36,858 nucleotides of DNA from a virus. Shown here piece by piece: positions 4,520 to 30,149 of this stretch. The DNA lies in IMG/VR virus record IMGVR_UViG_3300046455_000369. One strand, 5' to 3'. The translations under genes and the position numbers were made by a program. Positions within the stretch are counted from its first letter, which is position 1, and each line of letters begins with the position of its first letter. The notes under the pieces were generated by a model, which was given only the letters and a program-made list of their open reading frames with translations, ran no database searches and had not been told where the DNA came from.

Positions 4520-6967
4520 GTGGCTCTGCTCGCCGAGATGGGGTGGGGTGGCCTGGTCCAGGACCCGGCCACCATCACGTGGACGGACATCTCGACCTAC
4601 GTGGACATGGCGACGGGAGTGACCATCACCCGGGGCGCTTCCGACGAGCTGTCGGAGACGCAGCCGGGGACGGCCACCCTGCGCCTGGACAACGCCGACG
4701 GCCGGTTCACCCCGGGCAACGCGGCCTCGCCCTATTACCCGTTCGTGCGCCGCAACGCGCCGATCCGGATCTCGGTGGCGGCCATCCCCGTCCGGACCGG
4801 ATCGGCCCCGTACCTGCTGGAGCAGCTCGGCGACGACTTCGACAACAACCAGGTCGACACCACGCTATGGACGGCGTCGGGCGGGGCCAGCGAAACGAAC
4901 GGGCGCATGCGCCTGCCCCTCGTGGCCGCAGGCACCACGGCCCGGTTCGTGAGCCTGCGTCAGTGGAAACTGCAGGGGTCGAAGCTGACGGCGAAGCTGT
5001 GCACCATCCCTGCTGGCGGCGGCAGCGCGTTCGGGTCGGTGACGATGTACGTGGAGGCGGTCGCCAGCAACACGTGGCTTCGCTGGACGTACAACGCCCT
5101 CGACGGGAAGCTGCGCGCGTACAACGACGCCGGGTCTACCGACCCCTCGCCGACCGTGCTCACCTACGACCCGATCCAGCACGCGTGGCTGCGGATCCGC
5201 GAGGCGTCGGGGACCGTGTACTTCGAGACCAGCCCGGACGGCGTTGTGTGGACGGTATGCCGGTCGCTGGCCACCCCGGCGTGGGTCGTGACGGACACGG
5301 TGCAGGTGGAATTCGCCGCGAACCGCTCCGGCGGCACCAGCGACTACGCCGAGTTCGACCTGGTCGGCGCCGATGTCCGGCCCCGCTTCTACGGCATGGT
5401 CAACGAATTCCCCGTGGACTGGGAAGGCCTCAGCAGCCACGTGCAGGTCACCTGCACGGACCTGTTCAAGCGGCTCAACAGGCTGCCCACGCTCCGGTCG
5501 ATGCTGACCGAGGAGATCGCCAAGATCTTGCCCACCGTGTACTACCCGCTGACCGAGCCGTCCGGGGCGGCATCCGCCGGCGACATCTCCGGCAACGCCC
5601 TGCCCTCGATGGCCATCACGCAGGTGTCGACGGGCGGCACGCTCACCATGGGCACCGACACCGGGCCGACCGAGACCGGCGACAGTACCCCGACGTTCAC
5701 CCCGTCCTCGGCGACGGCCGGCCTGTACCTCGCGGTCGACCTGGGGGTGGCCACCCAGCAGGCGCTCACGTCCTCCGTGTTCTCGGTCGAGGGCTGGTTC
5801 AAGACGACGACGACCGGCCGGGCCATCCTCAGCCTGTACTCACCGGACCTGCAGTGCGTCCAGGTCGTGTCCCTGTCGGCGTCCGGCGCCCTGCAGATCG
5901 AATGGACTGCCTCGGGTTCCAGCACCCTGACGGTGGAGGCCATCGCCGGAACCAGCGGCCTGAACGATGGGGCCTGGCATCACTTCGAGTGGGACCAGAG
6001 CGGCAGTGGCAGCGTCGCCGTGGACGGCGTGGTGGTCGACCCCAGCGTGCCCGTCACGGACGGGTTCGACCAGCGGACCCTTCACATCGGCGGATACCGC
6101 GGCACCCGGCTGTGGTCCGGGTCGATCGCGCACGTCGCGCTGTATGCGCGGTCCTCGATGGGCAGCGTCCTCGCCACCCACTACGCCACGGGCATGACCG
6201 GGAACGCTGGCGAGACCGCAGACTCCCGGATCGAACGGTTCTGCGACTATGCGGGCCTGGTCAACGTCTTCTTCCAGGGGAGCACGTTCGACCCGATCGC
6301 GTCCCAAGGGCCTGGCGGCACGGGCGTGGTGGCGCGGATGCGGGAGGTGGAAGCCACCGAGTCGGCGAAACTCTTCGCGGACCGCGACGACTTCGGCATG
6401 ACGTTCCAGTCCCGGGACCTGCGCTACAACCCGTCGCCCGCTGGCGAGGCGTTCACGATCGCCTACGCAGACCTGGAGACCAAGAGCGTCGAGTTCGCCG
6501 ACGACGACCAGAAGCTGATCAACAGCATCGAGGCATCCCGCCCGGGCGGCGCCACCCAGAAAGTCACTGCTCCGTCCAGCATCCTGGCGTTCGGGGTGTA
6601 CGACCCGGGCTCCCTCTCGATCCTCAAGACCAGCGACAACAGCGTGCTGGACGCGGCGTCCTGGCGGGTATCCCGCTACGCCAACCCGGGGCCCGAGCTG
6701 CGCGAGGTGCCAATCGAGGCGTACACGATGGCCAACTACACGGGCATCCTCGCCGCCGACATCTCCAGCTACTTCAGCGTCACCGCCATGCCGTCGCAAG
6801 CGCCGTTCTCCTCGGTACGGGTCACCGTCGAGGGCTACACGGAGACGCTCAAGGAGCGGTCGCATCTGATCCAGTTCCACACCAGCACCACCAACAACGA
6901 CTCCGTGTGGGTGCTGGACGACCCGGTCTACAGCGTCCTCGACTACACCACCCGCCTCGCCTACTAG
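4520..6967 (+). CDS. Distal tail protein (Dit, siphovirus tail component) enlarged by two ConA/LamG-like lectin-fold insertions (815 aa)
   Basis: GTG 4520 lies 3 nt after the TMP stop. The N-terminus ITWTDISTYVDMATGVTITRGASDELSETQPGTATLRLDNADGRFTP is Dit-like. aa ~100-285 form a jelly-roll-like insert (HAWLRIREASGTVYFETSPDGVVW). aa ~395-560 form a LamG-type insert (FSVEGWFK...DGAWHHFEW...LHIGGY...GSIAHVALY). A Dit-like C-terminal part follows. Confidence 0.8.
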   Translation: MALLAEMGWGGLVQDPATITWTDISTYVDMATGVTITRGASDELSETQPGTATLRLDNADGRFTPGNAASPYYPFVRRNAPIRISVAAIPVRTGSAPYLLEQLGDDFDNNQVDTTLWTASGGASETNGRMRLPLVAAGTTARFVSLRQWKLQGSKLTAKLCTIPAGGGSAFGSVTMYVEAVASNTWLRWTYNALDGKLRAYNDAGSTDPSPTVLTYDPIQHAWLRIREASGTVYFETSPDGVVWTVCRSLATPAWVVTDTVQVEFAANRSGGTSDYAEFDLVGADVRPRFYGMVNEFPVDWEGLSSHVQVTCTDLFKRLNRLPTLRSMLTEEIAKILPTVYYPLTEPSGAASAGDISGNALPSMAITQVSTGGTLTMGTDTGPTETGDSTPTFTPSSATAGLYLAVDLGVATQQALTSSVFSVEGWFKTTTTGRAILSLYSPDLQCVQVVSLSASGALQIEWTASGSSTLTVEAIAGTSGLNDGAWHHFEWDQSGSGSVAVDGVVVDPSVPVTDGFDQRTLHIGGYRGTRLWSGSIAHVALYARSSMGSVLATHYATGMTGNAGETADSRIERFCDYAGLVNVFFQGSTFDPIASQGPGGTGVVARMREVEATESAKLFADRDDFGMTFQSRDLRYNPSPAGEAFTIAYADLETKSVEFADDDQKLINSIEASRPGGATQKVTAPSSILAFGVYDPGSLSILKTSDNSVLDAASWRVSRYANPGPELREVPIEAYTMANYTGILAADISSYFSVTAMPSQAPFSSVRVTVEGYTETLKERSHLIQFHTSTTNNDSVWVLDDPVYSVLDYTTRLAY

Positions 6968-11285: not shown

Positions 11286-11471
11286 GCGTCTACCTTCGAT
11301 TCGAAGGCGATCACTCACAGGCCCGAATTGAGCCGCAAAGCCGCAGGTCAGCGGGCTGGACTTCCATGACGAACGTCAAGCTCAAGCATGATCCTTTTAG
11401 TGGTGTCGCAGGACCATATTGGGGTTCCCGAACCTGAGACAAAGACGCCTCTAGCGGAGCACACTCGGGGC
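11286..11471. other. Candidate attP-containing and int-promoter region
   Basis: A 186-bp AT-richer non-coding gap directly upstream of the serine integrase gene. It has three short palindromes: CCTTCGAtTCGAAGG (11293-11307), TGACGaaCGTCA (11367-11378) and GGTTCccGAACC (11423-11434). Position is by analogy with other serine-integrase phages. The exact core is not identifiable by eye. Confidence 0.35.
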
Positions 11472-12968
11472 ATGAAGAACACCCAGACGGGGGGCGCCCA
11501 GACGCGCGCGGCCATCTACTGCCGCATCTCGCAGGACCGCACGGGCGCCGGTCTCGGCGTCGACCGGCAGCGCGAGGACTGCCAGGCCCTCGCCGACCGG
11601 AACGGCTGGACGGTCGTCGAGACCTACGTCGACAACGACGTGAGCGCGTACTCGGGGAAGAAGCGCAAGGACTACGAGCGCATGCTGGCCGACCTCGCCG
11701 AGGGCAAGGCCACCGTTGTGATCGTCTGGCACACGGACCGGCTCCACCGCTCGGTCACCGAGCTGGAGAAGTACATCAACATGTGCGAGCAGCGCGGCGT
11801 CACCACCCACACCGTGCAGGCCGGGGAGCTCGACCTCGCTTCACCCACCGGGCGGATGGTGGCGCGGATGCTCGGCAACGTCGCCCGATACGAGTCCGAG
11901 CACAAGGGCGACCGGATCGCGAGGAAGCGCCGGCAGAAAGCCATGGCAGGCGAGTGGGCCGGCGGGATCCGCCCGTTCGGCTGGGGCCTGCCCACCGGCG
12001 AGACGGTCAAGAAGGTGGACCGGAAGACCGGCGACGAGATCGAGGTCCCCGAGCTGGACATGCTCAAGGCCGTGCCCGAGGAGGCCGAGGCCCTGCGCTA
12101 CTGGACGGATCACATCCTGTCCGGCGGGTCGATCCGGTCGCTCGTGCAGTGGTGCGCGGACAAGGGCATCACCTCGACCCGCGGGAACGCCGTCACGCAC
12201 ACCGATATGCGCGACATGCTGCTGCGCCCCAGGAACGCCGGGATCGCCGTCTACAAGGGCGAGGAGGTCGGCCCCGGGCGGTGGGAGCCGATCGTCGCCG
12301 AGACGAAGTTCAGGGCCGTCTGCGCGGTCCTGAGGAACCCGGAGCGGACGACGACCCCGGGCGCCCAGCCGAAATGGCTGGGATCACTGCTGTACCGGTG
12401 CGGCCGCGGGGATTGCCCGGAGTTCGTGTACGTCACCCAGTCGGGCGGCCGCCGGTATCCGTCGTACCGGTGCCAGACCGGGCACGGCGGCGGCCGGCGC
12501 GCCGAGATCGTCGACCAGCATGTCGAGGACACGGTCGTCGAACGGCTGGAAAGAGACGACGCCCCCGACCTGCTGGAGCCCGCACCCGAGGGCGTGAACG
12601 TATCGGCGCTGCAGGCGGAGGCCGAGGACGTCCGGGGCCGGATGCGGAACCTGGCCGGGATGTACGGGGCCGGGCAGATCGACGAGGTGCAGTTCGCCGA
12701 GGGCACCGACACGGCCCGCGGCCAGCTGGAGGGGATTACGCGGCAGCTGGCGCGCGCAGCCCGGGTGGATCCGCTCGTGGAGCTCGTCGGCGCGAAGGAT
12801 GTACGGAAGGCGTGGAAGGCGCTGACCTTGGACCGGAAGCGGTCGGTGCTGCGTTCCCTGGTCACGGTGACGCTGAAGACTCCGCGCGCCGGCCGGATGC
12901 CCGACGGCGGCTACTTCGACTACGACGCCGTCGTCTTTGAGTGGAAGCGGGGATCACCGATCGGATGA
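11472..12968 (+). CDS. int: Large serine recombinase (phage integrase), 498 aa
   Basis: MKNTQTGGAQTRAAIYCRISQDRTG... is a resolvase-type catalytic domain with the Ser nucleophile context YCRIS. A recombinase domain (ARYESEHKGDRIARKRRQKA), a zinc ribbon (YRCGRGDCPEF...YRCQTGHGG) and a coiled-coil region follow. Confidence 0.95.
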   Translation: MKNTQTGGAQTRAAIYCRISQDRTGAGLGVDRQREDCQALADRNGWTVVETYVDNDVSAYSGKKRKDYERMLADLAEGKATVVIVWHTDRLHRSVTELEKYINMCEQRGVTTHTVQAGELDLASPTGRMVARMLGNVARYESEHKGDRIARKRRQKAMAGEWAGGIRPFGWGLPTGETVKKVDRKTGDEIEVPELDMLKAVPEEAEALRYWTDHILSGGSIRSLVQWCADKGITSTRGNAVTHTDMRDMLLRPRNAGIAVYKGEEVGPGRWEPIVAETKFRAVCAVLRNPERTTTPGAQPKWLGSLLYRCGRGDCPEFVYVTQSGGRRYPSYRCQTGHGGGRRAEIVDQHVEDTVVERLERDDAPDLLEPAPEGVNVSALQAEAEDVRGRMRNLAGMYGAGQIDEVQFAEGTDTARGQLEGITRQLARAARVDPLVELVGAKDVRKAWKALTLDRKRSVLRSLVTVTLKTPRAGRMPDGGYFDYDAVVFEWKRGSPIG

Positions 12969-13757: not shown

Positions 13758-13897
13758 AGAGTCTGGTCGCGACACTGGCAATGAGGACCCCCCGCCTGGT
13801 CGCAACTGGTAACCCAGTGGCCAATGTGACCAGCGGAAACGTGGTTACCTGGCAGTATTGCTTGCTTCATTGCCACTCATTACCTTATGGTCTGGCC
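13758..13897. promoter_or_regulatory. Divergent promoter/operator region of the immunity switch
   Basis: Repeats seen: CTGGTCGC at 13763 and 13796, plus inverted CTGGTCAC (13826-13833). Palindrome ACTGG-TAAC-CCAGT (13805-13818). GGTAACC/GGTTACC inverted pair (13808/13842). A[CG]TGGC(C)AATG at 13774 (+), 13816 (+) and 13868 (-). Confidence 0.55.
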
Positions 13898-15829: not shown

Positions 15830-18565
15830 GTGGCAGCGCCGCGCCCTCACGAACACCATCGGCACCACGGGAATCGAGAGACCACGTTCGTGAACACCAA
15901 CACCGAGCCACTGGCCGCGGACCCGGGCATCGTCCGTGCATGGCTCGCTCCCCGCTTCGAGGCCCCCGGCCTCGTCTCGATCTGTTCCAAGGGCAACTGG
16001 ACCGGGATCCAGACCGACGACCTGGACCGTGCGGTCGCATGGGTCATGTCCCAGGATCAAGCCGGCGCCGAGGGAATCTACTGCCGAGTCACCACAGTCA
16101 CCAGCCGGTTCCCCGGCGGGTCCCGCGGCAGTGCTCGCGACTCCCGTGCCGTCTTCGGCATGTGGTCCGACATCGACTTCGGCAACGACCTCCACAAGGC
16201 GACCGGCCTGCCCGCCGACGCCAGCGAGGCCCGCGATATCCCGCGCTTCGCGCGCCTGCCGGACGCCACCCGCGTCGAGAACTCCGGCGCCGGCCTGTAC
16301 GTCTGGAACGAGTTCGAACAGCCGCTCGTCATCGGCGAGGACATCGAGTTCGACGACTTGGCGGAGCTCGCCGGGGACTGGCAGAACATCCTCCTGGCCG
16401 GCGCCAAGGTGATGGGCCTCAGCTATGGAACCGGGGTGCGGGACCTGGCGCGGGTGCTGCGGCTGCCCGGCACGGTCAACCGCAAGCCCGGCCGGGTCCC
16501 TGTGCTCTGCCAGGTCGTCGAGGACAGCGGTATCCGCTACGGCCTCGACGACATCCGGAAGCTGGCTGCCGACCTGAAGCCCAAGCCGAAGAAGCGGACG
16601 GCGCCGACGGCTTCGGCACCCCGGGCCAAGACCGCGCGCAGCAGTCAGAGCGGCGGCCGCGGGCCGATGGAGATCCTCGGCGACCACGCGTGCTGCGGTG
16701 AGATCCTCATGCACGTCGGCGCCACCTACGCCGAGCAGTACCCCGGCACCTGCTCGTACTGCGGTCCCGGATGCCAGCGCTGGAACCGGCCCAACTGGGA
16801 CGACACCTGCTCCAAGGACGGTGTTGCCGTCCACAAGGAGGGCGCCGCAGTCACCATCCGCACCGACAACTTCCCCGGGATCAGCGCGGCCGCGATCGGC
16901 CACGTCCTCTCCCCCGGCCAACTGTTCGCTGCACTGCACCACAGCGGCGACGAGTCCGAGGCATCTCGCGACATCATCCGGGCGGCGCACGGTCGCGACG
17001 GAGCGAGCGCTGCGGCCCGCGCGCTGCCAGTCGCCGTCCTCGACGACGTGCGCCAAGCCACCGCCCGCGGCGACGAGCCGGACGATCAGCCGGAGCCGGA
17101 GACCGAGGCCAACGCCGAGAACGACGAGCCCGAGGCCCCGCCCGCCGGATCCCCCGCCGCGCTGCTCGCCGACTTCCTCGATCAGATGAAGACCTACGTC
17201 CACCTCGCCGACCACGGACACGTCATCTTCGCGCTCGCGGTGGCCGTGTCCTCCGACCTCGACGGCGAACCACTGTGGGGCATGCTCGTCGGGCCGCCCT
17301 CCGGCGGAAAGAGCGAAGCGGTCAAGGCCCTCGACGAGATCGCCGACGAGCACGTCGACGACATCACCGGCCCCGCCCTGCTGTCGTGGATGCCGGGCAA
17401 GAACCCCAAGCCGGCGGGCATCCTCACCCGCATCCCGAGCCGCGCGTTCGTCAGCATCAGCGACTTCTCCACGGTGCTGGCCACGTCCGACCGGGGCGGC
17501 CGCGACACCCTGTTCGCGCTGCTGCGCCGGGCCTACGACGGACACGTCGTGCGCGAGGTCGGGAACTCCCCGCGGCCGCTCACCTGGACGGGCCGCCTGA
17601 CCCTGCTCGCTGCGGTCACCCCGGCCATTGACAACTTCTCCTCGCACACCGACGCGCTCGGTCCTCGCTGGCTGTACTGCCGCTTGCCGGAAACGGACAG
17701 CGCCCACAAGAAGGCCACTGTCCGCAAGCGCCGGAAGATCGAGGGGCTCGCCGAGAAGCAGGCCGAAGCCCAGCGCCGGGCGTCCGCTCTCGTGCGTGCC
17801 GCGCGCCGGGTCGTGGGCGACGTCGAACTCGACGACGAGATGTACGACCAGCTCGAGGACGCGGCCATGCTGACGTGCCTCGGCCGCGCCGCAGTCCCGC
17901 GCAACGCCTACGGCCGCCGAGAGATCGACGGCATCCCGATCATCGAGGAGCCCGCCCGCATCACCGGGCAGATCGTGTCCCTCGCCAAGTCGCTGCTCGC
18001 GCTCGGCGTCTCCCGCGGCGAGGCCCTGGCGCTCGCGGGCAAGTGCGCGCTGGACACCGTGCCTCAGGCGCGGCTGGCCTGCCTCAAGCAGCTGGCGGGC
18101 GGCGAGCCGATGACGGTGTCCGAGGTACGTCGGCGCACGGGGTTGAACAGGCATGTCGCCCGGCGCGCGCTGGAGGACATGGAGGTCCTCGACCTGACGG
18201 CGTGCCCTCGGCACGAGAAAGACGAGGAGTCGGAGGAGGTCGGCTTCCCGGCCTCAGTGCCGTGGCATCTGGGCGAGGAGCGGGCGCTGGTGGCGCGCGT
18301 GCTCGCCGCGCAAGCCGCAACCGAACAGGCGAGCGATTCCGAAGGCTCTCCCTTGGCACGAAGTGTTGGTTACCCAACCCCAACCCCCCAAGAAAGAGAC
18401 CTTAACGATCTTCAAAAGGGCTCGTCAGAGGGTTCCGGTACGCGCGCAACCCACACTTCGGGCCAAGCAAAGCCCCAGCCCACGCCGTCCCCGGCGCCCG
18501 AAGACGTCGGGCTGTGGGACGTGCCGCTTGACGAGCCCGACGACTACTGGGCCGAAGCCAGCTGA
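15830..18565 (+). CDS. Replication protein: primase-polymerase (prim-pol) N-terminal domain, P-loop helicase-like domain and C-terminal wHTH (up to 911 aa)
   Basis: Prim-pol/PriCT-like motifs: MWSDIDFG, SGAGLYVWNEF, RLPGTVNRKPG. A Cys cluster: CCGEILMH...CSYCGPGCQRW. Walker A: MLVGPPSGGKSEA. wHTH: MTVSEVRRRTGLNRHVARRALEDM. The start is uncertain (GTG 15830 or GTG 15890). Confidence 0.8.
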   Translation: MAAPRPHEHHRHHGNRETTFVNTNTEPLAADPGIVRAWLAPRFEAPGLVSICSKGNWTGIQTDDLDRAVAWVMSQDQAGAEGIYCRVTTVTSRFPGGSRGSARDSRAVFGMWSDIDFGNDLHKATGLPADASEARDIPRFARLPDATRVENSGAGLYVWNEFEQPLVIGEDIEFDDLAELAGDWQNILLAGAKVMGLSYGTGVRDLARVLRLPGTVNRKPGRVPVLCQVVEDSGIRYGLDDIRKLAADLKPKPKKRTAPTASAPRAKTARSSQSGGRGPMEILGDHACCGEILMHVGATYAEQYPGTCSYCGPGCQRWNRPNWDDTCSKDGVAVHKEGAAVTIRTDNFPGISAAAIGHVLSPGQLFAALHHSGDESEASRDIIRAAHGRDGASAAARALPVAVLDDVRQATARGDEPDDQPEPETEANAENDEPEAPPAGSPAALLADFLDQMKTYVHLADHGHVIFALAVAVSSDLDGEPLWGMLVGPPSGGKSEAVKALDEIADEHVDDITGPALLSWMPGKNPKPAGILTRIPSRAFVSISDFSTVLATSDRGGRDTLFALLRRAYDGHVVREVGNSPRPLTWTGRLTLLAAVTPAIDNFSSHTDALGPRWLYCRLPETDSAHKKATVRKRRKIEGLAEKQAEAQRRASALVRAARRVVGDVELDDEMYDQLEDAAMLTCLGRAAVPRNAYGRREIDGIPIIEEPARITGQIVSLAKSLLALGVSRGEALALAGKCALDTVPQARLACLKQLAGGEPMTVSEVRRRTGLNRHVARRALEDMEVLDLTACPRHEKDEESEEVGFPASVPWHLGEERALVARVLAAQAATEQASDSEGSPLARSVGYPTPTPQERDLNDLQKGSSEGSGTRATHTSGQAKPQPTPSPAPEDVGLWDVPLDEPDDYWAEAS

Positions 18566-23299: not shown

Positions 23300-23616
23300 G
23301 CGACGCCCTGAAGAAGGCCGAGGCCGCGGTCACCGAGGCGCAGACGGACACGGTGGCCGTACAACTGGCGCTCGCCGCCGTCGAGCTGGCCAAGGCCGCC
23401 ACCGCCCAGCAGCCGCAGCAGCAGGCGCCGGCCTGTAGCCACCAGCCCCGGCAGGGCCGTAGTACGGGCGAGTGGTTGGGGATCGGCTGCGCCGTGTGCG
23501 TTGGGGGCGTCGGGATCGCCTTCGCGTCCATCGCCATCGCCATCGGCGGCATGTCCGTCGCCATCCTCGCCCTGGTGCTGCGCTCCATCTGGCGAGACCT
23601 GCAGAGGGGACGCTGA
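23296..23616 (+). CDS. Membrane protein (106 aa; N-terminal helix, C-terminal TM)
   Basis: GTGA overlap start at 23296. C-terminal part: ...EWLGIGCAVCVGGVGIAFASIAIAIGGMSVAILALVLRSIW. Confidence 0.5.
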   Translation: MSDALKKAEAAVTEAQTDTVAVQLALAAVELAKAATAQQPQQQAPACSHQPRQGRSTGEWLGIGCAVCVGGVGIAFASIAIAIGGMSVAILALVLRSIWRDLQRGR

Positions 23617-23884: not shown

Positions 23885-25966
23885 ATGACAGTCCACCTGA
23901 TCAAGCCGGAACAGGACGCCCCCGAGGACGCGCCGGACACCACTCCGTCCTCGACGCGTCCCGAGCGGCGCCGCGCCCGCTATCTCCGCATCACCAAGGC
24001 CGCCCTCACCGACGACCGCGTCCGCACCGCCGGACGCCTCGCCGTCCGCCACGCGTCCTACATCACCGGCGGAGGACGCATCGTCGGACGCCGCGTCTGG
24101 GACAGCCGGTCCACCGCCCGGTACGAGCGGATGATCCGCGCCGCCGAAGCCGCCGGCCTCATGGACGAAGTCAAGGAATGGGAGGCACGCGCCGCCGCCT
24201 ACAAGGCCGCCCGGCACCGCCGCCGCCTCGACATGCTCCAGCTGATGATCCAAGCCCCCAAGGCCCTCGCGTTCGCCACCGTCGGCGGCGCCGGCGTCCT
24301 CCTCCTAGTCGGCATCCTGCTCGCCTGGGGCAGCGGCGACGTCCACGACGTCCTCACCCCCATCGAGACCGTCATCGACCTGGTCCGCTGGTGCGCGTTC
24401 ATCGGCGGCATCGTCTGGGACCCGTTCCTGTTCGCCGCCCCCTGGATCGGGCTCGCCGCCGTCTGGGCCGTCGGCCAGCACCAGCACACCGCCCCCCAGT
24501 GGGCACTGCCCGCAAGCGCCCGCACCTACGGCGACGCCGTCACCCCGTCCATCGTCGTCATCGCCTTCCGTGACCTGGGCATCTCCCCGCTCCGTAAGGC
24601 CATCGACAGCATGGGCGACCTCGGTGGCGCCATGCTCTCCCCGATCACCATCGCGGGCTGCGGCGTCCAGGTCGACGTCCACCTGCCCACCGGCGTCTCC
24701 ACCGAAGAGATCCAGGCCAGGCGCAAGAAGCTCGCCGAGAACCTCAACCGGCACGAACACGAGGTGTTCATCTCCATCCCACCGCAGCCCCGCACCGTCA
24801 GCCTGTGGATCGCCGACTCCGGCGCCCTCGACGAACCCATCGGCCCCTCGCCGCTCGTGCTCGACGACGACATCCACGCCAACTACAAGACCGGCCGCGC
24901 CCCCTGGGGCCAGTCCCTGCGCGGCGACAACGTCGGCATGAGCGTCTACCAGCGGCACGTCCTCATGACCGGCCTGTCCAACCAGGGCAAGACCGCCTCC
25001 CTGCGGGCCGTCGCCCTCTGGCTCGCCTTCGACACCTCCGTCGAGTTCTGGATCGGCGACCTCAAGGGCATCGGCGACTGGCGGATGTTCAACGGCATCG
25101 CCACCGTCCTCATCGAGGGCCCCACCGACGAACACGCCTGCTCCGTCACCGAGATGGTCGAGGCCGCCGTCAAGGAGATGGAGAAGCGCCTCCAGGACCC
25201 GCCCGGCACCGTCCACCACCCGCTCGTCGTCATCGTCGACGAGGCCCAGGTCGCGTTCATGAACCCGCTCAAGGGCGACGACGGCCGCCCCTACGGCGGC
25301 AAGAAGGCCACCAGCAGGTACTTCATGGCCTGCCGCCGCCTCCACAACCAGGGCCGCGCCGTCTCCGTCACCCTGTGGCAGGGCACCCAGGACCCCACCG
25401 ACGAGAACCTGCCCAAGCTGGTCCGCGAGGGCGCCCACATCCGGGCCTCCCTCGTCGTCGGCACCGAGTCCCAGGCCAAGATGGCCCTCGGCGACAAGGC
25501 CGTGAACGCCGGCGCCGCACCTCACCTGCTGCGCCAAGGCCTCGACAAGGGCACCCTCGTCGTCGCCGGCGACGGCATCGAGATCCCGGCCGGGGAACCG
25601 GCCATCACCGTCCGCACCCACTTCATCGACACCGACCCCGCCAAGGAGATCGCAGAGCGCGCCCGCCAGCTCCGCGACGGCATCGCCACCGTCCACCAGC
25701 TGGAGGTCGCCCCCGACGTCGACCACCTCCTCGACCTGGCCGCGGTCGTCGGCCGCGAGAACCGCGTCCGCACCACCGAGGTCATCCACCGGCTCAAGTC
25801 CCGCAACCACCCCGTGTACGAGCACTGGGACGGCAAGCGCCTCAAGGCCCTGCTCGCCGAGTACGGGGAGGAGCCGGGGGTGTCCGACGGCTATCCGGTG
25901 GTCAAGCTGGAGAGCGTCGAGAGGGCCCTCGAACGCCGCGCGGAGCAGCTTGCTGAAGCCCAGTGA
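23885..25966 (+). CDS. TraB/TraSA-like FtsK/SpoIIIE-family dsDNA translocase (693 aa)
   Basis: GGAG RBS, ATG 23885. N-terminal TM helices: ALAFATVGGAGVLLLVGILLAWG and FIGGIVWDPFLFAAPWIGLAAVWAVG. Walker A: LMTGLSNQGKTAS. Walker B: HPLVVIVDEAQVAF. C-terminal wHTH-like region: RVRTTEVIHRLKSRNHPVYEHWDGKRLKALLAEYG. Confidence 0.8.
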   Translation: MTVHLIKPEQDAPEDAPDTTPSSTRPERRRARYLRITKAALTDDRVRTAGRLAVRHASYITGGGRIVGRRVWDSRSTARYERMIRAAEAAGLMDEVKEWEARAAAYKAARHRRRLDMLQLMIQAPKALAFATVGGAGVLLLVGILLAWGSGDVHDVLTPIETVIDLVRWCAFIGGIVWDPFLFAAPWIGLAAVWAVGQHQHTAPQWALPASARTYGDAVTPSIVVIAFRDLGISPLRKAIDSMGDLGGAMLSPITIAGCGVQVDVHLPTGVSTEEIQARRKKLAENLNRHEHEVFISIPPQPRTVSLWIADSGALDEPIGPSPLVLDDDIHANYKTGRAPWGQSLRGDNVGMSVYQRHVLMTGLSNQGKTASLRAVALWLAFDTSVEFWIGDLKGIGDWRMFNGIATVLIEGPTDEHACSVTEMVEAAVKEMEKRLQDPPGTVHHPLVVIVDEAQVAFMNPLKGDDGRPYGGKKATSRYFMACRRLHNQGRAVSVTLWQGTQDPTDENLPKLVREGAHIRASLVVGTESQAKMALGDKAVNAGAAPHLLRQGLDKGTLVVAGDGIEIPAGEPAITVRTHFIDTDPAKEIAERARQLRDGIATVHQLEVAPDVDHLLDLAAVVGRENRVRTTEVIHRLKSRNHPVYEHWDGKRLKALLAEYGEEPGVSDGYPVVKLESVERALERRAEQLAEAQ

Positions 25967-26130
25967 CCCGGCAGTGGTCAGTGACCTTTCACTTCCAAGG
26001 TCACTGACCCGCCCCACTGGCTTTGATCAGCGGAAACAGCGATCAAGTGAGGAAGTGAGGCCGTCTGTAAGGTCCCGTCAGGACCCGGCAAACGGCCTCT
26101 CTGCGCGTCGCACACAAGGTCACTCACTGC
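25958..26130. repeat. Dense AGTGA(C/G) motif array with nested palindromes (candidate clt / iteron / operator cluster)
   Basis: AGTGA on + at 25962, 25980, 26046 and 26054; TCACT at 25989, 26001, 26120 and 26124. GGTCAGTGACC (25976-86) and its reverse complement GGTCACTGACC (25999-26009). Tandem AAGTGAGG x2 (26045-26060). GGTCC-cgtca-GGACC (26071-26085). GATCA x2. Confidence 0.7.
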
Positions 26131-26144
26131 CGCATCATGGGGGC

Positions 26145-26345
26145 ATGGAGTCGCTGACCTACCGCCCCGGCCACTACACCGCCCACCAGACCGCCGAGAT
26201 CCTCGACGTCGGCCTCGGAACCATCCGGCAGATGGTCCGGCGCGGCCAGCTCCGCCGCTCCGGCGGGACCCCGCGGCAGCCCTGGTACCCCGCCGCAGAG
26301 GTCAACGCGCTCGCCGCGAAACGACAAGAGCGCGTTGCCGCTTGA
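26145..26345 (+). CDS. Excisionase-family (MerR-like) HTH DNA-binding protein (66 aa)
   Basis: MESLTYRPGHYTAHQTAEILDVGLGTIRQMVRRGQLRRSGGTPRQPWYPAAEVNALAAKRQ fits the Xis-type HTH pattern. Confidence 0.65.
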   Translation: MESLTYRPGHYTAHQTAEILDVGLGTIRQMVRRGQLRRSGGTPRQPWYPAAEVNALAAKRQERVAA

Positions 26346-28176: not shown

Positions 28177-28384
28177 GCACCGGCTCGGCCTGATCGCAGA
28201 GCAGATGATCACGGCACCTAGGGGGGTACGCCGACGACGGAAAGTGCCTTCCCGGGCGACCCAAACGCCCTTGTCGCCCGATTTTTTGCGCGGCGATTTT
28301 TTCTTGATCAATTCGCGTGAACTCAGTTCGGCCCTTTTAGCGGCGGTCACCGTGCGTGACTGTCACCCTCCGTGATGGGCGGTC
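28177..28384. other. Candidate cos / terminase-recognition region
   Basis: A 208-bp AT-richer gap between the P-loop gene and terS. CGATTTTTT x2 (28279, 28294). TCTTGATCA x2 (28302, 28383). Palindrome GTGAC-t-GTCAC (28356-28366). GTCACC x3 (28346, 28362, 28400). An HNH gene is nearby. Confidence 0.45.
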
Positions 28385-28669
28385 TTGATCATGGGCATGG
28401 TCACCGACAAGATCAAACAAGAGATCCAAGATCTTCGTGCCGACGAAACCACGCCCGGCCTCGCGCAAGTCGCCATCGCCCTCGCCGAGTCGATCGACGA
28501 GCCCGGCGGCCCCACCGGCAAGGCGAACGCCGCCCGAGAGCTGCGCGCCGTGATGAACGACCTCCGCAAGCTCGCGCCGATCGCCGAGGAGGGGGACACC
28601 GTCGATGACATTGCTCAGCAACGAGCGAAGCGCCAAGCCGCCGCCCGCGAGAAGGCAGCCGGTGGCTGA
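28385..28669 (+). CDS. terS: Terminase small subunit (about 94 aa)
   Basis: Position immediately upstream of and overlapping terL. Actinophage TerS-like helical protein (GLAQVAIALAESIDEPGGPTGKANAARELRAVMNDLRKL). Alternative starts at 28391 and 28397. Confidence 0.65.
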   Translation: MIMGMVTDKIKQEIQDLRADETTPGLAQVAIALAESIDEPGGPTGKANAARELRAVMNDLRKLAPIAEEGDTVDDIAQQRAKRQAAAREKAAGG

Positions 28670-30149
28670 CGGCCCCGCGCAGGGCTGGCAGGCGCCGCCG
28701 ATCGAGACCGCGCCGCCGTCGGTGACGACGGCCGGCCAGGAGGCGATCGATCTTGCGGCGCGGGCCGGGCTGCGCTTGGACCCGTGGCAGCAGCACGTCC
28801 TGCGACAGGGGATGGGCGAGCAGGCCGACGGCAACTGGGCAGCGTTCGAGGTCGCCGTCAACGTTCCCCGCCAGAACGGCAAGGGCGGGATCATCGAGGC
28901 CCGGGAGCTGTGGGGCCTGTTCATCGGCGGCGAGCAGCTGATCCTGCACTCGGCACACGAGTTCAAGACGGCAAAGAACGCGTTCAAGCGGATCGAGCGT
29001 CTCATCCGCGCGTGCCCTGACCTGCACAAACGTGTGAGGGCGTACCGGTACACGGTCGGTGAGGAGTCCATCGAGCTGCACACCGGGCAGGTGCTGCGGT
29101 TCATCGCCCGCTCCAAGGGCTCCGGGCGTGGCTTCACCGGCGACTGCAACATCCTCGACGAGGACATGATCCTGGGCGACGAAGCGATGGACGCGCTGCT
29201 GCCCACGATGGCAGCCGTCGCCAACCCGCAGATCTGGTACCTGGGTTCAGCCGGGATCGGCACCCCCTCGGTGCAGCTGGGACGCCTGCGCCGGCGGGCG
29301 CTCGCAGCGATCGAGACCGGCACCCCCGACCCGTCGCTTGCCTACATGGAGTGGTCGTGCGACCTGCACGTGGACGAGTGCCCGCAGAACTGCGAGGCGC
29401 ACGACGACGCTGCCTCGGACGAGGCGGTGCTGAAGTCCAATCCGGCGGTCGGCTTCCGGCTGACCCTGGAGAAGGTCCGGAACGAGCGGTCGACGCTGAG
29501 CGCGGCCGGCTTCGCGAGGGAGCGGCTCGGCGTGGGCGACTATCCATCCGACGAAGCGGACACGTGGCAGGTCATCGGGCAGGACGCATGGCGGGCTCTG
29601 GCGGACGTTGGCAGCGCCCCGAGTGACCCGGTGGCCTTCTCCATCGACATGACGCCGGAACGCAGCCACGCGGCTATCTGCGTGGCCGGGTACTGGCAGG
29701 GCGGCGTGCACGTCGAGGTGGTTGACCACCGTCCCGGCACCGGCTGGATTCTCGAACGGGCCAAGGAACTGCATGAGCGGTGGGGGCCGCGCTGCTGGGT
29801 GGTCGACGGCGGCGGCCCGGCCGGATCGCTCATCCCCGACCTGGAGGACGAGGAGAAGGGCCTGGGCGTCACCGTCGTCCAACCGAAGGCCCGGGAGATC
29901 GCGCAGGCCTGCGCGCAGTTCTACGACGCCGTCACCGAGCAGAACCTGAGTCACCTTGACCAGGCGCCGCTGGCGTCCGCGCTGGCGGGCGCTCAGAAGC
30001 GACCGCTCGGCGACGCGTGGGCGTGGGCCCGCCGGATCGTCTCCGTGGACATCAGCCCGCTGGTGGCCGCGACGTTCGCGAAGTGGGGGCTGTCGGCGGT
30101 GCTCGACGAGCAGGAAGAGGAGGCGCTGCCGTGGGCGGAGTACGGATGA
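28605..30149 (+). CDS. terL: Terminase large subunit (up to 514 aa)
   Basis: Walker A-like VNVPRQNGKGG. Walker B-like CNILDEDM. A C-terminal nuclease-like domain is present. Alternative start GTG 28662 gives a short overlap with terS. Confidence 0.9.
   Translation: MTLLSNERSAKPPPARRQPVADGPAQGWQAPPIETAPPSVTTAGQEAIDLAARAGLRLDPWQQHVLRQGMGEQADGNWAAFEVAVNVPRQNGKGGIIEARELWGLFIGGEQLILHSAHEFKTAKNAFKRIERLIRACPDLHKRVRAYRYTVGEESIELHTGQVLRFIARSKGSGRGFTGDCNILDEDMILGDEAMDALLPTMAAVANPQIWYLGSAGIGTPSVQLGRLRRRALAAIETGTPDPSLAYMEWSCDLHVDECPQNCEAHDDAASDEAVLKSNPAVGFRLTLEKVRNERSTLSAAGFARERLGVGDYPSDEADTWQVIGQDAWRALADVGSAPSDPVAFSIDMTPERSHAAICVAGYWQGGVHVEVVDHRPGTGWILERAKELHERWGPRCWVVDGGGPAGSLIPDLEDEEKGLGVTVVQPKAREIAQACAQFYDAVTEQNLSHLDQAPLASALAGAQKRPLGDAWAWARRIVSVDISPLVAATFAKWGLSAVLDEQEEEALPWAEYG

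Follow-up and report, generated by a model that had tools for sequence, protein, structure and literature searches.

The viral record IMGVR_UViG_3300046455_000369 from IMG/VR (36,858 bp; the window hereafter means this whole stretch) carries a gene for a TraB-like DNA translocase, and the DNA at the 3' end of this gene is packed with copies of one short word. Based on a comparison of related elements, we consider it likely that this region (25961-26129) is a clt-like cluster of ten recognition sites for the C-terminal winged helix predicted in the TraB-like protein. A sequence-only reading of the same DNA had proposed a clt-type cluster read by this domain, with replication iterons and operators as alternatives. 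The first of these proposals is favoured by 51 related loci, by the concerted change of the repeat core within each element and by a correlation of the core with the TraB-like protein's last ~60 residues.

The pentamer AGTGA occurs four times on each strand of the array, at 25962, 25980, 26046 and 26054 on the plus strand and, as TCACT, at 25989, 26001, 26120 and 26124. Several of these copies belong to longer motifs: AGTGACC at 25962 and 25980, GGTCACT at 25999 and 26118, GGTCAGTGACC at 25976 with its reverse complement GGTCACTGACC at 25999, two tandem copies of AAGTGAGG at 26045-26060, TCACTTCC at 25989, and GGTCC-N5-GGACC at 26071-26085. All of these motifs had been listed in the sequence-only reading and were found again at the same coordinates. 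Its count of eight motifs holds for AGTGA itself, but the full array is larger when AGTGG variants are included, and then comprises ten 8-bp slots in 169 bp (25961-26129) with the consensus gnCAGTGAS (position matrix from 166 sites). The order is three forward slots, three reverse slots, a 15-bp conserved element, two tandem forward slots, a hairpin and two overlapping reverse slots. The first AGTGA motif includes the TGA stop codon (25964-25966) of the TraB-like open reading frame (ORF). The G+C content of the array is 60%, with no AT-rich unwinding region. Slots 2 to 6, 9 and 10 in the following list were placed by the array alignment.

25961-25968, plus strand: slot 1, CAGTGACC; holds the TGA stop of the TraB-like gene, a position conserved across loci
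25972-25979, plus strand: slot 2, CAGTGGTC
25979-25986, plus strand: slot 3, CAGTGACC
25988-25995, minus strand: slot 4, GAAGTGAA on the minus strand
25999-26006, minus strand: slot 5, CAGTGACC on the minus strand
26012-26019, minus strand: slot 6, CAGTGGGG on the minus strand
26023-26037, plus strand: motif-independent conserved element TTGATCAGCGGAAAC, family consensus TGAYCWGS-N2-AAAY
26045-26060, plus strand: slots 7 and 8, AAGTGAGG twice in tandem; the best conserved pair in all motif classes
26057-26099, plus strand: conserved stem-loop with outer stem GAGGCCGT/ACGGCCTC and inner stem GGTCC/GGACC
26118-26129, minus strand: slots 9 and 10, overlapping; GGTCACTCACTG on the plus strand, GAGTGACC and CAGTGAGT on the minus strand

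In the window as a whole, AGTGA is not enriched (30 copies on both strands of the 36,858 bp, against a mean of 41 after dinucleotide shuffling). However, eight of the 30 copies are confined to 25962-26128, where the expectation per 173 bp is 0.10 when derived from the rest of the window and 0.23 when derived from local composition. This bears out the earlier estimate that far less than one copy should occur here by chance. Every other 173-bp stretch of the window holds at most two copies, and the Poisson probability of the array is ~3e-13. The 22 copies outside the array (7 on the plus and 15 on the minus strand) form no second cluster in the window, so the motif is not equally frequent elsewhere. 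Scans of the array region for tRNAs, Rfam families, promoters and terminators returned no significant match.

To compare the region with relatives, we used protein-guided scans, which yielded 13 loci with proteins 63-81% identical, and a profile scan of IMG/VR, which added 43 more. Deduplication left 51 distinct downstream regions, mostly from Streptomyces prophages and IMG/VR viral contigs together with one plasmid, and flanks of 3-6 kb were compared. In nearly all of the 51 loci, the repeat cluster begins at the traB-like stop codon, and slots 9/10 form the end of the array in all loci, irrespective of the next gene. When 40 arrays were aligned, the slots matched column by column while the word varied by element. 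The window and 16 other arrays use CAGTGA(S), and about 20 arrays use CAGGGAG(G), for which 156 sites gave the matrix gnCAGGGAGG. Further words are CGGTGA (L030), GGTGGGG/GGTGAGG (L041, L043 and L045), TGGGGAG (the plasmid and L050) and, in single or few loci each, GAGGGAG, CAGGGAA, AGTGGA and CCTAAC. Within one element, the ~10 slots all hold that element's word, with 7-12 pentamers of the own class versus 0-2 of another class. The conservation of the motif across related elements, which the earlier reading had named as a check, thus takes the form of a layout that is kept in 51 loci and a word that differs by class. When ten sites on a fixed scaffold change together in this way, they bear the signature of binding sites for a single sequence-specific protein that the element encodes, with diverged specificity.

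In sequence comparisons, the word class follows the C-terminal ~60 residues of the TraB-like protein and no other tested protein. The gene and the region in question are as follows.

23885-25966, plus strand: gene for a TraB-like FtsK/SpoIIIE-family double-stranded DNA (dsDNA) translocase, 693 aa, with ATG at 23885 (mechanical ORF start at 23501)
25724-25906, plus strand: C-terminal region modelled as a winged helix from its AlphaFold2 (AF2) topology; holds all class-predicting columns

All 21 proteins that end in a 'WxGxRL...GYP' C-terminus are associated with NGTGR arrays, and 22 of the 23 that end in 'W..DLK...KSxG' with NGGGA arrays; in the exception, L027, the array begins inside the ORF. 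Two further loci (L035 and L054) encode chimeric C-termini that join a helix-3 region of the CAGGGAG class to the GYP wing of the CAGTGA class, and their arrays, taken over 0-200 bp after the traB-like stop, are a mix of CAGGGAG and CAGTGAG. In the two large classes, the fit between word and C-terminus amounts to 43 of 46, which is an association of physically linked features and not of binding. A mutual-information scan of 43 full-length proteins gave normalised values of at least 0.9 only at K635, G647, E659, Y667 and P668 (of 690), and the first 630 residues of these 43 proteins hold no class-predicting column. In the model, the five columns fall where helix 2 ends, where helix 3 starts and in the wing, all within the last ~60 residues.

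No covariation with word class was seen for the other candidates, namely the primase-polymerase-like (prim-pol) protein, the HTH_17 protein, o19945 and the large terminase TerL, nor for a conserved 210-aa protein. The relatives are strongly mosaic: elements with prim-pol proteins 85% identical, or with TerL proteins 74-86% identical, differ in traB C-terminus and array, and vice versa. These natural swaps and mosaic neighbours disfavour the prim-pol, HTH_17 and terminase proteins as binders.

One of the earlier alternatives regarded the repeats as iterons for the winged helix of the 911-aa prim-pol-like protein, which is encoded ~7 kb upstream of the array (15830-18565) and ends in a MarR-like winged helix. 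This appears extremely improbable. The prim-pol of the CAGGGAG element L002 shares 78% identity with the window's protein over its C-terminal 232 aa, and its winged-helix recognition helix, LNRHVARRALEDMEVLDL, is identical, so that one and the same helix occurs with two different words. Moreover, the 8-bp units lie in both orientations, the G+C-rich array lacks an AT-rich region, and the arrays never adjoin the prim-pol gene.

The other alternative named operators for the Xis-type helix-turn-helix protein encoded next to the array.

26145-26345, plus strand: gene for a 66-aa HTH_17 / MerR-like protein (Pfam HTH_17, 1.3e-5; PHROG 2474); a neighbour of the array and not part of it

The ATG of this gene (26145) lies 16 bp past the last slot in the window, and likewise in several relatives, as would suit an operator. 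Considering that the HTH_17 proteins of L019 (CAGTGA) and of L018/L002 (CAGGGAG) are identical at 53 of 56 positions, including an identical helix-turn-helix, while their words differ, we regard such a role as very improbable. In addition, the gene after the array is not HTH_17 in 5 of the first 12 loci (L003, L004, L005, L010 and L012), and the plasmid among the relatives, L014, has no such gene.

About equally improbable is that the array serves as a packaging site (cos/pac) for terminase, or as a group of sites for BldD or another conserved host protein. The array is located 2.5 kb upstream of TerL and contains AGTGA...TCACT pairs, and the old BldD operator consensus AGTgA(n)TCACc resembles the motif of the window. 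However, TerL type is independent of word class, since the TerL of L001 (CAGTGA) is 30% identical to that of the window and the TerL of L012 (CAGGGAG) 74%. The array is also present in the terminase-free plasmid, and a candidate small terminase gene and a terminator adjoin TerL instead. As for BldD, a conserved host protein cannot account for element-specific cores in one host genus.

We then considered what kind of protein the TraB-like gene encodes. Its start codon is most likely ATG 23885, judging from homologues of ~690-710 aa with the N-terminus MTV.L.K. The sequence contains a Walker A motif (GLSNQGKT) at residue 363, a Walker B motif (VVIVDE) at 448 and a transmembrane-like segment at ~124. 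An AF2 model of residues 200-600 (predicted local distance difference test score, pLDDT, 80) has as its top matches the FtsK motors 2IUT, 2IUS and 6T8O and the FtsK-like coupling protein TcpA (E 3e-15 to 1e-12, TM-score ~0.6). PHROG 1358 'FtsK/SpoIIIE-like' matches the protein at 1e-18. More than 2,600 database proteins match it at E <= 1e-10, and many homologues carry PF01580. Among annotated proteins, a plasmid transfer-type protein is the closest relative, and the FtsK/SpoIIIE protein of plasmid NZ_CP108827.1 is 51% identical. Classical Streptomyces plasmid Tra proteins share 22-26% identity with the window protein. A tblastn search of 50,697 deposited phage genomes with the TraB-like protein returned no match, and a 13-member profile found none among PDB sequences at E <= 0.01.

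The C-terminal 100 aa, used alone as a homologue-search query, retrieved four fragments only. The AF2 model of this part (pLDDT 80) has the topology H-E-H-H-E-E-H, that of a winged helix, and nearly all top Foldseek matches in the PDB are winged-helix domains, none of them significant (best E 0.2, TM-score ~0.4). A winged-helix model directly after an FtsK-fold motor is the domain order of TraB and FtsK, which supports the clt reading.

The inverted slots raise the question of whether RNA structure could account for the array. According to this explanation, the region would be the 3' untranslated end of the early operon, with two hairpins acting as terminator or stabiliser and the pentamers arising as a by-product of stem symmetry. 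Both blocks are predicted to fold strongly (block 1, -38.1 kcal/mol, z -6.6; block 2, the 26057-26099 stem-loop, -30.8 kcal/mol, z -3.2), and the traB-like gene closes the early genes ahead of the late/packaging block. The GGTCC-N5-GGACC palindrome that the sequence-only reading had picked out is present, but it proved to be only the inner stem of the larger conserved hairpin at 26057-26099. Across 9 loci, 7 of the 25 predicted pairs of this hairpin show compensatory double changes, the motif-free inner stem included, and a hairpin with z < -2 occupies the same position in 22 of the 51 arrays. It lacks a T-run, and a simple terminator scan was negative. The 26057-26099 hairpin is probably a factor-independent end of the early (traB) transcript or a structural part of the locus.

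Block 1 behaves differently. In 17 CAGTGA-type arrays its covariation term is ~0, complementarity is limited to the word cores, and the flanking bases are often non-complementary (L017, L019, L021, L023 and L055). Because of this lack of covariation, we do not regard block 1 as a selected RNA structure. Furthermore, stems need pairwise complementarity; they do not need one 6-8 bp word in ten slots, including tandem copies (slots 7/8) and loops (slot 4), nor a word that switches as a set along with the TraB C-terminus. The array also has no T-tract. Taken together, an origin of the whole array as a 3' end is unlikely, and a terminator role of block 2 would be compatible with a clt function.

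Between the two blocks lies the 15-bp element at 26023-26037, which does not depend on the word. Its consensus TGAYCWGS-N2-AAAY is found in 39 of the 51 unique arrays, with any word class, against a background of 0.21 per 250 bp. It is located +57 to +63 after the stop codon in close relatives and is inverted in distant ones. The 14-mer TGAYCWGSNNAAAY has three exact copies in the window (13827-13840, 26024-26037 and 29018-29031), where 0.56 would be expected even with one mismatch allowed. The copy at 13827 lies in the divergent intergenic region of repressor and cro, between GGTAACC and GGTTACC, and the copy at 29018 lies inside TerL and is conserved in related TerL genes. A sigma-70-type promoter starting from TTGATC/TTGACC in the central element was considered and rejected, because an acceptable -10 is lacking and distant relatives carry the element in inverted orientation.

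Several observations weigh against a clt-like array read by the TraB-like protein. First, the array abuts the codons for the C-terminal domain, and some co-inheritance is expected even without function. Given this physical linkage, the argument rests on the concerted change of the slots and on recombination breakpoints close on both sides. Second, the strong folding of the inverted slots in block 1 makes an RNA or cruciform role not fully separable from protein binding. Third, the protein scores 18.5 bits with the NCBIfam plasmid_TraB equivalog (cut-off 800) and 20.7 bits with Pfam FtsK_SpoIIIE (cut-off 24); as it fails these curated family models, we file it as TraB-like, in a separate subfamily. 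Fourth, the winged-helix model has no significant structural match, as noted above, and FtsK gamma is not among the top matches. Fifth, spread (spd) genes were not detected in the window, and traB is the only gene that the window and plasmid L014 have in common. Finally, the covariation tests covered the regulators within the 3-6 kb flanks.

This last point bears on another explanation, in which the slots are operators of a different element-encoded regulator from outside the sampled flanks, such as a late activator or a repressor of the downstream operon. The array is located at the early/late boundary, and the HTH_17 start codon follows slots 9/10 at a distance of 16-27 bp. Against such operators, the downstream gene varies among loci with the same array, and the same architecture follows traB in a 13.5-kb plasmid that lacks phage late genes and has its next gene in the opposite orientation. 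No tested neighbour covaries, and the association maps sharply to the TraB C-terminal domain. We therefore consider another regulator an improbable reader of the array, on a par with the 3'-end explanation.

The junction with the HTH_17 gene has a feature of its own. The sequence GCCGCATCATGGGGNCATGG (window 26130-26150) has the HTH_17 start codon at its end, and its conservation spans word classes when the same position is compared in L001, L002, L006, L007, L009, L015, L017 and L019, which would also suit operators of another regulator. An obvious Shine-Dalgarno sequence is absent from it, and the transcript here may be leaderless or initiated in an unusual way, with a -35/-10 spacer overlapping slots 9/10.

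The genomic setting differs from that of known clt loci. By its gene content, the window is the genome of a temperate siphophage, and it appears circularly permuted. Signs of the permutation are tail genes at the window start, a tail tube gene cut at the end and an integrase in the middle. Pfam and PHROGs identify terminase, portal, capsid, head-tail connector and tail tube genes; the window also encodes a protein of tape-measure size and a tail fibre-like protein. There is also a serine integrase (11388-12968), a divergent repressor/cro pair and a single-stranded DNA-binding protein (SSB). On the strength of these terminase, structural, integrase and repressor/cro genes, a plasmid context was rejected. 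Past the TraB-like gene, the order is HTH_17, DUF4352, an AAA/HNH protein, large terminase, portal, capsid, head-tail connector and tail tube. The TraB-like gene is thus the last one ahead of the late/packaging block, and the module lies between replication and packaging genes. Many relatives have terminase genes 2-4 kb downstream of the array, which confirms the phage setting.

Two further observations concern the DNA between the array and TerL. A terminator-like hairpin, GGGCGAC-N12-GTCGCCC followed by T6 (28251-28293), directly follows the AAA/HNH gene, and 42 bp of it recur with 93% identity in non-coding DNA of the small Streptomyces plasmids NZ_CP109526.1 and NZ_CP109563.1. A 72-aa ORF at 28391-28608, upstream of and overlapping the TerL start, is a candidate small terminase; given this candidate, the small terminase is probably not the 66-aa HTH_17 protein.

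The one plasmid among the relatives (L014, NZ_CP108827.1, Streptomyces, 13.5 kb) carries spdB, prim-pol, DUF3631, an integrase and the traB-like gene with its array, and no phage late genes. Its FtsK/SpoIIIE gene adjoins spdB, and the gene that follows the array runs in the opposite direction. Apart from traB, the spd region of this plasmid has no similarity to the window.

A scan of IMG/VR with the exact tandem 15-mer found dense AGTGR clusters only beside TraB-like genes, and for orphan arrays it returned 19 unrelated low-density matches. As a separate observation, L078 (IMGVR_UViG_3300050821_014019, 5230-5280) contains six perfect tandem copies of CAGTGAGG after a phage head-module gene, with a prohead protease upstream. 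A TraB-like gene is absent from the 5.8 kb around this tandem, which could be a chance repeat or an orphan recognition array.

Known clt loci lie at or after the 3' end of a tra gene and are composed of 5-9 bp words over ~50-175 bp, and the array described here agrees with them in both position and repeat composition. The closest counterpart is the clt of pWTY27, which consists of 16 bp inside traA and the adjacent 159 bp (175 bp in total), contains four TGACACC repeats and inverted repeats, is footprinted by TraA in two blocks and is required in cis for transfer (PMC3583192). Both that locus and the array begin in the last tra codons, extend over ~160 bp of non-coding DNA and combine multiple short words with inverted repeats. 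In contrast, pWTY27 uses the word TGACACC/CCCGCCC in four direct copies, whereas the slots here are arranged 3+3+2+2 and convergent. Moreover, pWTY27 is a theta plasmid with experimentally shown function, the array belongs to a phage and its function would follow by comparison, and the Tra proteins are only distantly related.

Similar features have been reported for other plasmids. TraB proteins read element-specific 8-bp repeats via a winged helix (cited via PMC3583192, PMC4447253, PMC4170104), and at the clt loci of pSVH1, pIJ101 and pJV1 a hexameric FtsK-like pump is described as using its C-terminal winged helix to read short (5-9 bp) repeats that are specific to each element (Vogelmann 2011, Franco 2003, Ducote 2000, via PMC3583192, PMC4447253, PMC4170104, PMC9513070). 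Inverted repeats form part of the published clt loci of all three plasmids pIJ101, pJV1 and pWTY27 (PMC3583192). For pSAM2, no clt motif has been described (PMC9513070). The family here resembles pSVH1, pIJ101 and pJV1 in its element-specific short repeats, in an apparent specificity that varies between elements and in the inverted repeats within the locus. It differs in that the three plasmids are small and conjugative and carry spd genes as well as a traR/korA repressor, whereas the present module resides in a siphophage without detectable spd. It further differs in its fixed slot architecture, its motif-independent central element and its at least seven core classes.

A small Streptomyces plasmid provides a side observation on this point. 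In NZ_CP109526.1 (L081, 3310-3410), which is annotated with a classical 'plasmid transfer protein TraB', four copies of CTTGTCGC are followed ~60 bp on by three copies of GCGACAAG, in convergent orientation. These repeats may be the plasmid's own clt, built on the same convergent logic.

The array also invites comparison with the FtsK orienting polar sequences (KOPS) read by FtsK gamma and the SpoIIIE recognition sequences (SRS), where a C-terminal winged helix likewise comes after an FtsK-fold motor and recognises a word of 8 bp that is often G-rich. Among the words of the present family, the CAGGGAGG and TGGGGAGG classes are similar to GGGNAGGG, and the orientation of the words could direct loading. 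However, KOPS and SRS are distributed with a strand skew along an entire chromosome, whereas AGTGA here forms one 169-bp cluster, with fewer copies outside it (22) than the shuffle mean of 41 for the window as a whole. Polar sequences of the KOPS/SRS type are ruled out, as there is neither replicon-wide enrichment nor a second cluster.

FtsK/SpoIIIE-like genes of unexplained function have been reported in Streptomyces phages, with manipulation of host development suggested and no cis site reported (PMC13587820, PMC10117723, bioRxiv 10.1101/2024.02.16.580700). Those genes are likewise phage-borne, although the window protein has no match among the 50,697 deposited phages. Our literature search found no published phage-borne TraB/clt module. 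Transfer of the plasmid-phage pZL12 is known to require a tra gene. What appears to be new here is the phage setting, the fixed ten-slot scaffold with at least seven word classes and the class-independent central element.

How the module might work can be modelled by analogy with pSVH1 TraB and pWTY27 TraA, following the pump mechanism described for these proteins (PMC3583192, PMC4447253, PMC4170104, PMC3429521). Several winged helices of a hexameric pump would dock on the clustered slots, which comprise the 3+3 block and the 2+2 slots around the hairpin. Docking would nucleate assembly of the ring on the element's own dsDNA, and the ATP-driven motor would then move that DNA across a membrane or septum. 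We speculate that the 3+3 convergent block offers six sites, equal to the six winged helices of the hexamer. In the phage setting, the pump would act on the phage genome in its excised or replicating form, and the payoff could be a virion-independent passage through septate hyphae, or into neighbouring hyphae or spores.

More tentatively, a widespread group of temperate Streptomyces phages might carry a self-contained, conjugation-type module, made up of a TraB-like pump and its own clt, for moving naked dsDNA without virions between hyphal compartments or into adjacent hyphae or prespores, a wider reading that we hold to be possible but think has less than an even chance. As part of it, the word classes would represent incompatibility or specificity groups that block cross-mobilisation.

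FtsK/SpoIIIE-like genes recur in Streptomyces phages without a known target, and a cognate cis site adjoining one of them, as the array would be, points to the phage's own DNA as substrate. The family also constitutes a natural specificity series for the study of DNA reading by winged helices, with at least seven words on one scaffold and five candidate specificity residues. Given that the same type of array follows traB in an integrase-encoding plasmid that carries spdB, it may help to locate clt in the integrative and conjugative elements of actinomycetes (AICEs). If phages do spread through the mycelium by means of a conjugative pump, models of phage-host interaction in multicellular bacteria would need revision, and the boundary between phages and AICEs would be blurred.

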